Assembly (NCBI GenBank): GCA_044358425.1
Contig: CP054849.1
Coordinates: forward strand, 673,947 to 700,041
Source of the DNA: Marine Group I thaumarchaeote
Lineage (GTDB): Archaea; Thermoproteota; Nitrososphaeria; Nitrososphaerales; Nitrosopumilaceae
DNA length: 26,095 bases
Direction: 5' to 3'
Shown: positions 938 through 4,281 of the stretch, piece by piece
Numbering within the stretch: position 1 is the stretch's first letter
How the letters are laid out: the number at the start of each line of letters is the position of its first letter
Translations under genes and position numbers: made by a program
The notes under the pieces: model-generated
What the model was told of the DNA's origin: nothing
Seen by the model: only the letters and a program-made list of their open reading frames with translations
Database searches by the model: none

Positions 938-1165
938 ATGATAAAAGAAGAAGAATTGAATCAATGGATAAGTGAATTTCATCCAACAGTGGAAACTGAA
1001 ATAATTGAGGTATTGCGGGCACGAGTCCAATATGCAATTTTAGATGAATTAAACTACATGGTTTCGAATCAAATTGGGACTCCAGATCAAGTAAAAAAGA
1101 TCGTATTAGACGAGATTACAGAGATCACAAATGACTCAATTGAGATAGATACTGAAGAAGATTGA
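938..1165 (+). CDS. small acidic helical hypothetical protein
   Basis: ORF track 929..1165; ATG at 938 preferred because TAAATTTAA lies about 27 nt upstream. Confidence 0.75.
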   Translation: MIKEEELNQWISEFHPTVETEIIEVLRARVQYAILDELNYMVSNQIGTPDQVKKIVLDEITEITNDSIEIDTEED

Positions 1166-1230
1166 CCTAAAATAGAAGAAAAAACTACAAAATCTTTAAA
1201 AGCTACTCAATCGCAAGATTTTCGATATTA

Positions 1231-1446
1231 ATGGCTGAAAAAAAAGTGGTAAAGAAAACAACTGCAAAAGCAAAGAAAACAACCACTAAAGCAAAGAAAA
1301 CAAAAAGTAAAAAAATCAAAGATGAGCCTAGCGGAGATAGTGGAATAGTGATTGTGGATGATGATTTAGTCATAGATCAAGAAAAAATTAATGAAGAGCG
1401 AAGAGCATATCTTGAAGAAGCCAGATCTCAAGAAGCCACAGACTAG
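1231..1446 (+). CDS. hypothetical protein with Lys-rich N-terminus and acidic C-terminus
   Basis: 71-aa ORF with KKTT repeats, then IVIVDDD and EERRAYLEEAR; TTTAAA upstream. Confidence 0.85.
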   Translation: MAEKKVVKKTTAKAKKTTTKAKKTKSKKIKDEPSGDSGIVIVDDDLVIDQEKINEERRAYLEEARSQEATD

Positions 1447-1537
1447 AAACGTAATAATTGGTTTAGAAAATACGTTGGCACATATTTACCAAATTAATGT
1501 CAGTAAAACTCAGAAAAACCATTTTTTAAAACAGAAA

Positions 1538-1633
1538 TTATTTCTTTAAACAGACACAAGTACAGTCAAACATTCCAGCTTTACCCATACATTGTTCATG
1601 ATATGTATCAGAGCATTTAGTGCAAATTACCAT
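1538..1633 (-). CDS. 31-aa Cys-rich metal-binding (metallothionein-like) microprotein (not in ORF track)
   Basis: MVICTKCSDTYHEQCMGKAGMFDCTCVCLKK; 6 Cys and 1 His; ATG 1 nt after the upstream stop; AAGGAG SD-like motif at 1646-1651. Confidence 0.7.
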   Translation of the reverse strand: MVICTKCSDTYHEQCMGKAGMFDCTCVCLKK

Positions 1634-1634
1634 A

Positions 1635-1742
1635 CTAATCCAAATCTCCTTTTGTATGAGTTCTTTCATGAATAATGACTTTTTCAAAAGTATCAGAATA
1701 TCCACTCCATTTGAAACTACAATTACGACATTTGTAATTCAT
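1635..1742 (-). CDS. 35-aa single C2H2-type zinc-finger microprotein (not in ORF track)
   Basis: MNYKCRNCSFKWSGYSDTFEKVIIHERTHTKGDLD; Y-x-C-x2-C-x16-H-x3-H; ATG 1 nt after the upstream stop. Confidence 0.75.
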   Translation of the reverse strand: MNYKCRNCSFKWSGYSDTFEKVIIHERTHTKGDLD

Positions 1743-1743
1743 T

Positions 1744-1857
1744 TTATTCACATTTACCTATCTTTTGTGTTTCAAATTCTTTGAATGCGTTTACATCATT
1801 TGCTACTCTGGTTTTACCAAAAGCAAAATTTGATTTTTTAATGATTTTTTTGAACAT
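1744..1857 (-). CDS. 37-aa basic microprotein, first gene of a three-gene operon (not in ORF track)
   Basis: MFKKIIKKSNFAFGKTRVANDVNAFKEFETQKIGKCE; TATATAT 22-28 nt upstream; stop lies 1 nt before the next ATG. Confidence 0.6.
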   Translation of the reverse strand: MFKKIIKKSNFAFGKTRVANDVNAFKEFETQKIGKCE

Positions 1858-1878
1858 ACTAACCCATGATTTTTACTC

Positions 1879-1885
1879 ATATATA
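1879..1885 (-). promoter_or_regulatory. TATA box of the microprotein operon
   Basis: Minus strand reads CCGG-TATATAT-G at roughly the spacing expected for a leaderless transcript starting at ATG 1857. Confidence 0.5.
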
Positions 1886-1957
1886 CCGGCGTATTGAACG
1901 AAAATATCCTTTTTTAAAAATTAGAAGTTAATTTATCAAACACCAAACGTTTGAGAT

Positions 1958-2134
1958 TTATTTTCTGTTAAATTTTCTATCTAACATAGCGATAGCAATT
2001 CCAAAACCTATCAAAACAACAGCTGCAATCCTAACATAATCAAATCTTTCTTCAGGCATTATAATACCAACAACTGTAAACCAAGCTCCAAACACAAGAA
2101 CTACTACTGCTACAGCTTTTCCTAATGTACTCAT
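1958..2134 (-). CDS. 58-aa two-TM helical hairpin membrane protein (not in ORF track)
   Basis: MSTLGKAVAVVVLVFGAWFTVVGIIMPEERFDYVRIAAVVLIGFGIAIAMLDRKFNRK; two hydrophobic stretches and a basic tail; starts 2 nt after the upstream stop. Confidence 0.8.
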   Translation of the reverse strand: MSTLGKAVAVVVLVFGAWFTVVGIIMPEERFDYVRIAAVVLIGFGIAIAMLDRKFNRK

Positions 2135-2136
2135 TT

Positions 2137-2319
2137 CTAATTTGATAGTGTCAAAGTGTCATTAGGATTACAAATTCCAATATTGCATAGGTTCTGGTAA
2201 CCATCATCAGTTTCACCTTTATCATACGTTATTGCACAGCACTCATGATACACATGATCATTTCTAATTATGACTTTATGATTCAATTCAATTTCTTTTT
2301 TGCAATAGACACAATTCAT
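2137..2319 (-). CDS. small zinc-binding protein (LIM half-domain-like)
   Basis: C-x2-C-x18-H-x2-C plus a C-x4-C pair; TTTAAAA about 25-29 nt upstream on the minus strand. Confidence 0.75.
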   Translation of the reverse strand: MNCVYCKKEIELNHKVIIRNDHVYHECCAITYDKGETDDGYQNLCNIGICNPNDTLTLSN

Positions 2320-2519
2320 CTTATTACTTAATCAAAGAAGTTTTAAAATAAAAAAGACACTCGGCCCTACTGTTATTGTTTACAAAAGAAACACCCTTTT
2401 TTAAAAATCAGAATAATTCTTGAAAAATAGGCATGAAAATGTAAACTGTGCCTGAGTCCATCATCTTTCTTTAGATATATCCTAGAAATATTTATCAAAT
2501 TGATTCACATAAAGTAGTC

Positions 2520-2759
2520 GTGTATGCATTATGTTTGATTACTGTTAAACCAGGAAAAGTAGATTCAGTAGTTGAAATTTTAAAGAAAAAACGTAAAGTT
2601 GTAAAACAGGTAATGGTAGTTACTGGAAGAGCAGATATCAGTGTAATTTTACAAGGAAAAATGGATCAAATCAATCAAATGGTAATTGATTTTAAAAAAA
2701 TTAAGGATATTGTTACGACGGAGACTCTAATTGAAGTGGAGGTAGATTTAGGTTGGTAA
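2520..2759 (+). CDS. stand-alone Lrp/AsnC ligand-binding (RAM) domain protein
   Basis: ALCLITVKPG...VVTGRADI...TTETLI pattern; no HTH; GTG start with TTTATC at -29. Confidence 0.85.
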   Translation: MYALCLITVKPGKVDSVVEILKKKRKVVKQVMVVTGRADISVILQGKMDQINQMVIDFKKIKDIVTTETLIEVEVDLGW

Positions 2760-2971
2760 AAGCAATAATTTTAGTAAAATCTCCAAAAAAATTAATTGCT
2801 GTTAAATTAAGAAAATTGACAAAAGTTTCAAATTCATTTCCAACAAGCGGACAATTTGATGCAGTTGCAATAATTGATGTTCAAGAATTAATTGAAATTA
2901 AAGAAGTGGCAAATCAAATTCAAAAAATTAGCGGCGTTGAAAGAACTGAAACAATGGTTGAGGTTCAATAA
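2753..2971 (+). CDS. stand-alone Lrp/AsnC ligand-binding (RAM) domain protein
   Basis: KAIILVK...TSGQFDAVA...GVERTETMV pattern; TTG start overlaps the previous gene by 7 nt. Confidence 0.85.
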   Translation: MVKAIILVKSPKKLIAVKLRKLTKVSNSFPTSGQFDAVAIIDVQELIEIKEVANQIQKISGVERTETMVEVQ

Positions 2972-3044
2972 TTGATTTCAAAATAATTTAAAAAAATAAA
3001 ATTAAAATGGTAATTGATTTAAGCAACTTTCACCCATATTCTTT

Positions 3045-3458
3045 GTGAATATCAAAAAAGTTGGAAATGTAATATTGGCAGTCCAAGATTTAGACAAGTC
3101 AATACAATTCTACAATGAAATAATTGGTCTTCCAATTAAAGACCAAAGAAAAACATGGGTAGATTTAGGTACATCCGGAGCTTTGTTGAGTTTACACCCT
3201 GCATCGTCAACTGCAGAACATGTAGGAGATTCCATAGATAATGGAATAAGTGTTGGATTTCTAGTAGGAGATTTGAAATCTGCCATAGAAGAACTAAAAA
3301 CAAAAGATGTTACAGTTCATCGAGACATTATGGAAAGCGAGGTAGGCAAAAATGCAGTAATATTGGATCCAGACAAATATATGATTTCATTGTTTGAACC
3401 CAATTTTGAGGACAAAGATCAACAAACCAGTGGATATGTTGGATTTACACCAGCTTAG
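3045..3458 (+). CDS. VOC family (glyoxalase/bleomycin resistance) protein
   Basis: VILAVQDLDKSIQFY...IGL, VGFLVGDL and LDPDKYMISL motifs. Confidence 0.9.
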   Translation: MNIKKVGNVILAVQDLDKSIQFYNEIIGLPIKDQRKTWVDLGTSGALLSLHPASSTAEHVGDSIDNGISVGFLVGDLKSAIEELKTKDVTVHRDIMESEVGKNAVILDPDKYMISLFEPNFEDKDQQTSGYVGFTPA

Positions 3459-3838
3459 ATTGTCTTTTTTATTGAAGAGATAATCTTCTCCAAGCTTTTT
3501 TCTTTTGAATTAATTGAAATGTAGAAAGTTACATCACTTTTTTGTAAAATAAGAACATTAACTTTTGAATGTTTCAACAAAATATGGTCTAATTTTCCAA
3601 AGGAAGTATTAATTTTTCTTAATGAGAGCAATGTAGATGTAATGAAAAATTCATGTTTGACATCTTCAGAATTCAATAGAGGTTTAAGATTGGGTTTAAT
3701 TACACCAGTTAATGTCCTACCATAATTGTTTATCACACCAGCATATCGAATATTATTAGAAACTTCAAGAATAGTTTGACATTGTTTTTTATATTTTAAA
3801 ATATTTTTTTTCCATTTATCTGAAGGGGTTTTTACCAT
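3455..3838 (-). CDS. conserved thaumarchaeal hypothetical protein (roadblock/longin-like fold, DUF6659-like)
   Basis: C..IL....IRYAGVIN..GR...G pattern of an expanded thaumarchaeal family. Confidence 0.75.
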   Translation of the reverse strand: MVKTPSDKWKKNILKYKKQCQTILEVSNNIRYAGVINNYGRTLTGVIKPNLKPLLNSEDVKHEFFITSTLLSLRKINTSFGKLDHILLKHSKVNVLILQKSDVTFYISINSKEKSLEKIISSIKKTI

Positions 3839-3891
3839 ATTAAAAAACGAAATCAGAATTTAATAAGGCTTGTCAATCGTGCAATCAAATC

Positions 3892-4281
3892 TTAAGGATT
3901 ATGCTTATCTTTTGGTCTATTGTTTAATTTTTTCTTTAGTTCTAAATTCTCTTTAATGAGTTTCTCATTTTCAGTTTTTAGTGTTTGAACTGAATTTCTA
4001 CCACTAAACAAAGGATGGCCAGGTGGAACAATTGGGGATTCAGGTGAGATTAAACCTGAAGCATATTGTTGATAGAGTTTTTGAAATCCTTGAAGTTTTT
4101 GATTAAGGGTTTCATCATGCTGAGATAATTGTGATTTCATTTGATTCTGATGCATTGGAGATAAAGGATGATTTAGTCCTGGAGGCAATCTAGGAAACTG
4201 AAATGCCATGTGAGGAATGTTTGGATTTAATCCATAAAGGTCTTGAAGATGTCTCATTACCATATTATCCATAAATTTCAT
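3892..4281 (-). CDS. Pro/His/Gln-rich hypothetical protein with C-terminal coiled coil
   Basis: 129-aa ORF with two PPG(xx)HPL motifs and heptads LKTENEKLIKENLELKKKL; start uncertain among several Met codons. Confidence 0.8.
   Translation of the reverse strand: MKFMDNMVMRHLQDLYGLNPNIPHMAFQFPRLPPGLNHPLSPMHQNQMKSQLSQHDETLNQKLQGFQKLYQQYASGLISPESPIVPPGHPLFSGRNSVQTLKTENEKLIKENLELKKKLNNRPKDKHNP

Follow-up and report, generated by a model that had tools for sequence, protein, structure and literature searches.

A conserved, apparently leaderless micro-operon for three microproteins in marine ammonia-oxidising archaea

In a 26,095-nucleotide stretch of a Marine Group I thaumarchaeote genome (Nitrosopumilaceae; GCA_044358425.1, contig CP054849.1, positions 673,947 to 700,041 of the forward strand; hereafter the window), three minus-strand open reading frames (ORFs) with ATG starts, encoding peptides of 37, 35 and 31 amino acids (aa) designated p1, p2 and p3, tile positions 1857–1538. 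The p1-p2-p3 genes are conserved in marine ammonia-oxidising archaea and, as judged from their sequences, are very probably genuine microprotein genes that are under purifying selection and form an operon. The best explanation overall, which we hold with slightly better than even confidence, is a leaderless tricistronic micro-operon (positions 1896–1505, minus strand) for three microproteins, with the mechanism and function proposed below.

One nucleotide separates each stop codon from the next start, the p1/p2 junction reading TAA-A-ATG and the p2/p3 junction TAG-T-ATG, and each cistron lies in the +1 frame relative to the preceding one. An earlier reading of the letters alone (the sequence-only reading) had described the same three tiled frames with 1-nt junctions, as well as products comprising a basic peptide, a single C2H2 finger (here termed C2H2-like) and a peptide with six Cys and one His, and its coordinates, junction letters and compositions are all borne out. 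The tiling alone is not beyond chance. Among 200 first-order Markov sequences of window length (26 kb) and the same composition, 18% contain at least one comparable triple, defined as ATG ORFs of 30–60 aa with gaps of –4 to +10 nt; the source genome, a single contig of 1.36 Mb, contains only five such triples. It is the conservation in relatives that makes p1, p2 and p3 genes, and we judge them so because their frames, starts, stops and ligands are conserved, not because of the tiling. Chance open frames, or frames lying over a non-coding RNA, would be compatible with the frequency of such triples in random sequences and with the fact that no family database recognises the three peptides; conservation across genera at ratios of non-synonymous to synonymous substitution (dN/dS) of 0.10–0.33 argues against this, as does the absence of any Rfam family at gathering score on positions 1300–2500 (the only match being U54 at 20.7 bits against 40, outside the ORFs), and we consider it very improbable that there are no protein genes here.

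Of the 24 other same-genus genomes searched, 18 contain DNA matching the cassette, at ~68–93% identity, and some of them have several copies. In these relatives, ORF tables and tblastn give all three peptides in the order p1-p2-p3, with stop-to-start gaps of –4 to +9 nt. When one genome per species was scanned, 80 loci were retrieved (the named loci), 79 of which were resolved. Their hosts are labelled Nitrosopumilus, Nitrosarchaeum, Nitrosopumilaceae or Nitrosopumilales, or Marine Group I/Thaumarchaeota, with the exception of four: two metagenome-assembled genomes labelled Nitrososphaeraceae, one Nitrososphaerota and one 'archaeon'. These labels bear out the lineage, Nitrosopumilaceae, to which the sequence-only reading had pointed. 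Among the named loci, p1-to-p2 gaps are –4 to +2 nt in 24 of 25 pairs, and p2-to-p3 gaps range from –14 to +11 nt with a mode of –1 (39 pairs). The ligand pattern is intact in 77/79 p3 copies and in 37/39 of the p2 copies that adjoin p3. Nei–Gojobori estimates, from sequence pairs that are not independent, give median dN/dS values of 0.33 for p1 (133 usable pairs, 99% below 1), 0.30 for p2 (163 usable pairs) and 0.10 for p3 (76 usable pairs), with 99–100% of usable pairs below 1. Conserved order, Cys/His retention and dN/dS below 1, which the sequence-only reading had named as the signs to look for, were thus all found.

Table 1. Coordinates of the micro-operon and adjoining features in the window
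Feature	Position	Strand	Description
p1	1744..1857	-	37 aa, lysine-rich, first cistron
p2	1635..1742	-	35 aa, single C2H2-like zinc finger
p3	1538..1633	-	31 aa, Cys/His microprotein, third cistron
Promoter	1879..1896	-	BRE-like GC-rich …ACGCCGG, then TATATAT at 1885-1879 (-28..-22 of the p1 ATG)
Oligo-T tracts	1505..1537	-	directly after the p3 stop: TTTCTGTTTT…GGTTTTT…GTTTT
Variable ~1-kb island	1443..2481		five minus-strand microgenes including p1-p2-p3
60-aa Cys/His-rich ORF	2137..2319	-	coupled microgene upstream of the cassette
58-aa membrane ORF	1958..2134	-	2 nt after the 60-aa Cys/His-rich ORF

The p3 peptide follows the pattern C4-x2-C7-x4-H12-x2-C15-x8-C24-x-C26-x(1-2)-C, with Cys at positions 4, 7, 15, 24, 26 and 28 in the window and a core QCMGKxGM whose M16 and M21 are present in 79/79 named loci. 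In an alignment of 17 p3 sequences (A1), C4, C7, H12, C15, M16, K18, A19, G20, M21, C24 and C26 are invariant, and the seventh ligand position is a Cys at 28 or 29. None of the three peptides, p1, p2 or p3, scores above threshold against any Pfam or NCBIfam model. The p3 profile retrieves 21 clusters of 31–102 aa from 1.84 billion representatives of predicted proteins, none of them fused to a known domain, the longer members being spurious extensions or read-throughs, and the ESM Atlas returns for p3 only unnamed clusters at 0.84–0.86. The earlier statement that the ORFs fall below usual gene-caller cut-offs stands only in part, given these p3 clusters and the ESM Atlas clusters that lie near p2. 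A PHD finger was tried for p3 and rejected: p3 has seven ligands rather than eight, the first C-x2-C pair is absent, and the scores stay below cutoff (window p3 against Pfam PHD, 18.8 bits and E 0.0016 with a cutoff of 24; at E ≤0.01, 1/17 family members match PHD and 2/17 match PHDvar_NSD, all below cutoff). In PDB sequence searches with the p2 and p3 profiles nothing scored better than E 0.23, and the p3 profile reached the PHD fingers of MTF2 and Pcl at E 0.23–0.26.

By comparison, p2 has the pattern C5-x2-C8-x16-H25-x3-H29, with a motif HE(K/R)TH and the conserved aromatic residues Y3, F10 and W12. In an alignment of 25 p2 sequences (A2), Y3, C5, C8, W12, H25, E26 and H29 are invariant, and the C2H2 ligand set Cys-x2-4-Cys…His-x3-5-His is present in 25/25. 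AlphaFold2 run on A2 predicts a β-hairpin (strands 2–4 and 11–13) and a helix (residues 20–32) with a pLDDT of 82.5. In the ESM Atlas, the clusters closest to p2 are unnamed 'hypothetical proteins' at 0.93–0.96, and the nearest clusters with a family label are C2H2 types at 0.88–0.89.

Conservation is also striking in the 60 nt preceding p1, where a near-invariant BRE/TATA box is found 22–29 nt ahead of the first ATG in 19/19 loci. TATATAT is read where the sequence-only reading had noted a TATA box, and an ATTACGYCRG-GTATATAT block ends 21–22 nt before the p1 ATG in 19/19 loci, paralogous copies included. In a visual alignment, the ATTACGYCRGTATATAT promoter block is equally spaced at 19/19 p1 starts from relatives; the conserved p1 promoter reads ATTACGCCGGTATATAT, and a simple pattern match places TATA at –26 to –30 in relatives. 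The core motif occurs a single time in the unmasked source genome, at the window locus. Solitary p3 genes of other genera have TATTTAT-type boxes at a similar distance, some with an ACGTCGG prefix. Leaderless archaeal mRNA requires such TATA-to-start spacing, and because the TATA box lies at –28 to –22, its position implies that the p1-p2-p3 transcript would be leaderless, with a predicted start at or adjoining the p1 ATG. In three loci of genus g27 (L047, L048 and L060), a conserved hairpin-like GGGGGGTAAAAATAACCCC lies ~35–45 nt upstream of solitary p3.

Translation signals were compared by counting Shine–Dalgarno (SD)-like 4-mers from GGAGGTGA at –18 to –4, the 16S rRNA 3' end GGATCACCTCC being present in the genome. 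They occur at 0/18 p1 starts, 14/25 p2 starts and 10/17 p3 starts, and in 9.7% of random genome 20-mers; in the window, the AGGT and AAGGAG motifs that had been pointed out before genes 2 and 3 do lie 12–17 nt before the p2 and p3 starts. This pattern fits a model of leaderless initiation at p1 and coupled, SD-assisted re-initiation downstream. The features expected of a leaderless coupled operon, namely the TATA spacing, the lack of an SD motif before the first cistron and stop/start junctions of a few nucleotides, are all seen here.

The first cistron is the most variable part of the operon. With nine basic and four acidic residues, p1 is net basic and lysine-rich and is predicted to be disordered. 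Its N-terminus MFKKII-K-LKF and a mid motif DVNAFKE-E are conserved; in an alignment of 18 sequences (A3), only M1 and F2 are invariant, and indels occur in whole codons only. A prediction of a complex of p1, p2 and Zn scored 0.01, which gives no answer and counts neither for nor against binding. We considered whether p1 serves chiefly as a leader cistron of a leaderless mRNA, for ribosome loading or regulation, so that the act of translating it counts for more than its peptide and p2 and p3 alone function as proteins. In line with such a role, p1 is always first, starts at the predicted transcription start site and lacks SD-like motifs in all 18 cases; in eight loci the position just ahead of p2 is occupied by an Alba gene instead; and p1 is the least conserved of the three, with a dN/dS of ~1.9 against its closest relative. 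Its median dN/dS of 0.33 with 99% of pairs below 1, together with the conserved N-terminal and mid motifs and the in-frame indels, argues that the peptide sequence itself is selected, and we regard a mere leader role as rather unlikely. At one locus (L035, G016:C155:1306–1528), the p1 homologue runs into tandem repeats of a 'ETKHESKDECCST'-like unit up to the contig end; this could be a p1 variant expanded by repeats or an effect of assembly.

At the other end of the operon, the oligo-T tracts that follow p3 are likely an archaeal transcription terminator, as far as their letters tell. Parts of window positions 1000–4000 occur in 24 sequencing runs, and four RNA libraries from four studies were compared. 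A metatranscriptome contig of 358 nt (X5) covers 1502–1848 with 0 mismatches and includes p3, p2 and p1 from codon 4; it ends at 1502, just beyond the T-tracts, a weak hint of termination, as contigs do not define RNA ends. In runs X1 and X3, contigs cover the flanks only and none lies over 1538–1857, which is no evidence of absence. An 18–25-nt motif, TTTTTAAAAAAGG-like or on the minus strand TTCTRATTTTTAAAAAAGG-like, is repeated at 1902–1926, 2389–2413 and 1514–1531, after gene ends or before promoters of microgene units, and may be a terminator or boundary element.

The sequence-only reading had treated the three genes as one system. This does not hold, as p3 is solitary in 40 of the 80 named loci and p1-p2 also occurs without p3. 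The remaining named loci comprise 20 with p1-p2-p3, 15 with p2-p3, four with p1-p2-p3-p2 and one that is unresolved; among 20 loci from other genera, p3 is solitary in 16 and a full adjacent triple is present in L056 only. Within Nitrosopumilaceae, the p3 profile matches 171/301 genomes from 16/27 genera, nearly always once per genome and always in open frames of ~31–100 aa, and the p2 profile matches 100/301 genomes from 12/27 genera with up to seven copies per genome, tallies that include genomes flagged unpublished (seven for p3, one for p2). Neither profile matched any of 193 genomes from 19 other families of the order. Some genera have p3 and lack p2 (36/37 versus 0/37 genomes in g27, and 9/11 versus 0/11 in g22), and a few have p2 and lack p3 (for example 2/5 versus 0/5 in g30). 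Since p3 and p1-p2 are distributed independently, the operon is a composite of two modules: an old, family-wide and mostly single-copy p3 joined to a proliferating, multi-copy p1-p2 pair. The joined form is seen in three genera (g1, g20 and g38). The source genome itself contains one p3 and, at G000:311000–311239, a second pair p1'-p2' without p3. This pair has its own TATA box and is followed by a 41-aa CxxC…CxxC zinc-ribbon-like micro-ORF that replaces p3 (G000:C1:311000–311370).

The neighbourhood of p3 points to a possible function. An Alba (13), TBP (15) or TFB (6) gene lies within ~1.2 kb of p3 in 31 of the 79 resolved named loci, and 2.9% of the bases of the source genome lie that close to an Alba, TBP or TFB gene. 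The identities of these neighbours were confirmed by Pfam, and the arrangements differ: in eight loci the p2 start coincides with the end of an Alba ORF, which stands in p1's place; TBP is divergent and 3–64 nt upstream of solitary p3 in ten; the end of TFB directly precedes p3 in two; and TBP lies ~1.2 kb downstream of full cassettes in five. Same-genus cassettes are repeatedly accompanied by a 60-aa Cys/His ORF (11 loci), TBP (5), TFB (4) and Alba (4). Because p3 and p2-p3 repeatedly adjoin Alba, TBP and TFB in several arrangements, we infer that p2 and p3 may be small zinc proteins whose partners are nucleic acids or the basal transcription/chromatin machinery and which serve as cofactors or regulators, a role that we find quite possible though short of probable.

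Two ORFs accompany these loci as observations in their own right. A ~60-aa ORF, MPGYLG…HHLA…C…C-x2-C (for example L009:1232–1417, minus strand), has no Pfam match; it is present in 11 of 23 same-genus cassette instances and in 14/79 named loci, and its counterpart in the source genome (G000:308437–308604) lies ~2.4 kb from the p1'-p2' pair. The other is a 45-aa ORF of a family without a name, found ~0.1–0.8 kb from p3 in 20/79 named loci on either side and either strand (for example L051:2170–2304, L075, L081, L083 and L130–L140) and not found in the unmasked source genome. Its assignment as a ribbon-helix-helix protein was rejected, the sole Pfam match, DUF7557 at E 0.014, being below cutoff.

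The same neighbourhoods bear on metal sensing, which the sequence-only reading had proposed. In this alternative, p3, with or without p2, is a sensor, buffer or chaperone of metal (Cu(I) or Zn), and the operon is a metal-homeostasis mini-system of a copper-dependent ammonia oxidiser. Within its 31 residues, p3 has six Cys, one His and the invariant M16 and M21, and its tail reads C-x-C-x(1-2)-C; with seven ligands it is one short of two standard four-ligand Zn sites, leaving room for a cluster or a shared site. Thiolate- and thioether-rich sites suit Cu(I). The ligand set of p2, by comparison, is that of a structural Zn finger, and the genes that do recur nearby are Alba, TBP and TFB together with two small ORFs; genes for metal transporters, metallochaperones or metal regulators do not recur next to either the cassette or solitary p3. 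A 202-aa ORF beside the cassette of a 93%-identical relative (G010) looked by eye like a cupredoxin; it has no Pfam match and was dropped as evidence. A metal-homeostasis system is therefore distinctly unlikely and ranks below the transcription/chromatin role, while the 'regulatory' part of the earlier interpretation is plausible.

The setting of the cassette also raises the alternative that a small mobile element, or one derived from a virus, carries it as cargo, with an anti-virus, addiction or selfish function rather than a housekeeping one. A contig from X6, a second RNA study, joins window position 1442 to 2482, skipping 1039 nt, so the island that holds the cassette is an indel between strains; in the G010 genome, the cassette and the 58-aa gene lie in a 1.5-kb insert at another chromosomal site (L002, G010:575374–579000), whose flanks are adjacent in the source genome at ~751,455. 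These differing sites in two 93%-identical genomes, the strain without the island, the up to seven copies of p1-p2 per genome and a promoter almost identical among paralogous copies would all suit such an element, and C2H2-type fingers are known from crenarchaeal viruses, according to a 2013 survey (PMC3541406). Against this, no integrase, no direct or inverted repeats and no terminal repeats were seen at the island ends; none of 66 p3 pattern matches in IMG/VR viral contigs was confirmed; p2, as a single protein query, had no match in 50,697 phage records; and p3 is mostly single-copy and family-wide with a dN/dS of 0.10. We also place a mobile or viral origin below the transcription/chromatin role, as an improbable explanation on a par with metal homeostasis.

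If the locus is a leaderless tricistronic micro-operon, as we favour, transcription would begin at or next to the p1 ATG, p1 would be translated by ribosomes loading at the leaderless 5' end, and re-initiation at the 1-nt junctions, aided by SD-like GAGG/AGGT, would yield p2 and p3, before transcription would terminate in the oligo-T tracts after p3. The p2 peptide would fold as a ββα finger around one Zn (C5, C8, H25 and H29), and p3 would hold one or two metal ions with its seven Cys/His ligands.

Several observations weigh against this picture. On the transcript, the SD-like motifs fall within the Lys/Glu-rich ends of the ORFs before them, and codon content could account for part of this signal; a further X6 contig (291 nt, 7 mismatches, on 1665–1955) spans the predicted start, which makes read-through from upstream possible; contigs from RNA libraries show presence and not strand, ends or a single transcript, and DNA may occur in such libraries. 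On the peptides, window p1 differs from that of the 93%-identical relative at 8/37 residues with the pairwise dN/dS of ~1.9 mentioned above, for which reason p1 is considered loosely constrained at this locus, and the AlphaFold2 model of p3 has a pLDDT of 59 and is unusable for a fold search. The Cys-to-His spacer of p2 is 16 residues in 25/25 sequences and not the 12 of C2H2 fingers, and the canonical F/L core is lacking. The best Pfam match of p2, zf-H2C2_5, is at 11.7 bits with a cutoff of 27, and 0/25 A2 members match Pfam C2H2 models at E ≤0.01. The top Foldseek/VIA rows of the p2 model are eukaryotic C2H2 fingers (SALL3/4, CTCF, ZNF484 and Nizp1), and these structural matches are not significant (E ≥2, Z ≤2.8). 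Owing to the spacer and the sub-threshold profile scores, p2 is C2H2-like in ligands and predicted fold and not a demonstrable C2H2 member. On the proposed function, the Alba, TBP and TFB adjacencies are inherited within clades and represent perhaps five events, not 31, and the window locus itself has no Alba, TBP or TFB neighbour. Finally, ~15% of the source genome copy used reads N, which limits the copy-number statements made for it.

A more specific version of the transcription/chromatin role can be envisaged, in which p3 together with p2 is a lineage-specific zinc cofactor of the TBP/TFB/Alba machinery, built from free-standing eukaryote-like fingers. Here p2 would represent the C2H2 finger in minimal form; p3, a 'half PHD-like' knuckle with seven ligands, would gain its second metal site by dimerising or in trans with a partner; and the p1-p2 pairs would be a proliferating adaptor family under one shared dedicated promoter. 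This reading as a whole is unlikely, and we offer it as speculation.

Two further small genes of the locus deserve mention. The 60-aa Cys/His-rich ORF upstream of the cassette is multi-copy at the DNA level in two relatives (G016 and G022) and has only sub-threshold, RING-like matches in Pfam. Convergent with p3, a 71-aa ORF at 1231–1446 on the plus strand has a very lysine-rich N-terminal half and no Pfam family; its DNA is present in most same-genus genomes, at chromosomal places other than that of the cassette, and its product may be a small protein of chromatin type.

Among ocean archaea, Nitrosopumilaceae rank with the most abundant, and they drive marine nitrification; to our knowledge, their gene regulation is almost unstudied. 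To this picture the present analysis adds a Cys/His protein of 31 aa that is family-wide and strongly constrained by purifying selection, a C2H2-like microprotein family that is multi-copy and has a near-invariant promoter of its own, and what appears to be a clean example of a leaderless polycistronic micro-operon; Pfam and NCBIfam have a model for none of the three. The repeated linkage to TBP, TFB and Alba suggests the hypothesis of new transcription/chromatin cofactors in a lineage close to the eukaryote-like archaeal machinery. The p1, p2 and p3 peptides merit inclusion in Nitrosopumilus annotation and in small-protein proteomics databases.

We compared the micro-operon with known systems. 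The sequence-only reading had known of no described system with such a layout, and neither a family nor the layout was found in the databases and literature searched; no literature on these microproteins in ammonia-oxidising archaea was found in a search without subscription journals and supplements. The closest comparison in kind is with the haloarchaeal one-domain C(P)XCG zinc-finger µ-proteins, for example HVO_2753 and HVO_0758 of Haloferax volcanii (PMC6562870, PMC10716476, PMC11241148). In these reports they are, like p2 and p3, archaeal proteins of fewer than 70 aa that consist of little beyond a Cys/His metal site, are numerous in each genome and are often missed or unnamed, and regulatory or adaptor roles have been proposed for them. 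The p2 and p3 peptides fall within this size limit, whereas C(P)XCG as given there is present in neither p2 (C-R-N-C-S) nor p3 (C-T-K-C-S, C-T-C-V-C). They further differ in their ligands, Cys2-His2 in p2 and seven in p3, in their apparently leaderless polycistronic micro-operon and in their restriction, among the genomes searched, to Nitrosopumilaceae, and no sequence relationship with the haloarchaeal proteins was detected. Brz of Halobacterium salinarum (PMC2253796) is likewise a very small archaeal protein with a zinc motif, which regulates bop transcription and is encoded beside the genes to which it is linked; by comparison with p1-p2-p3, it belongs to another lineage, has another motif and is monocistronic, and no homology was detected.

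With respect to the binuclear treble-clef (RING-like) fold of PHD fingers, residues 1–17 of p3 (M-h-h-C-x-K-C-x4-H-x-Q-C-M) mimic the central C3-C4-H5-C6 ligands of PHD, but with seven ligands instead of eight and the first C-x2-C missing, this is a resemblance only. With eukaryotic C2H2 fingers and the AFV1p06-type fingers described in the 2013 survey (PMC3541406), p2 shares C-x2-C…H-x3-H and an aromatic residue that precedes the first Cys by two positions. Of what is in print, the nearest is that survey's report that no homologue of the AFV1p06 C2H2 type turned up in Thaumarchaeota (PMC3541406). The end of the p2 helix, HE(K/R)TH, resembles the eukaryotic H-x-R-T-H, and the predicted β-hairpin and helix would be like those of C2H2 fingers, whereas the spacer of 16 rather than 12 residues, the sub-threshold Pfam scores and the non-significant structural matches set p2 apart from the classical type. 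Belonging to no described family, p1-p2-p3 appear to be a lineage-restricted form of the archaeal zinc-finger microproteins, with an unusual polycistronic and apparently leaderless layout.

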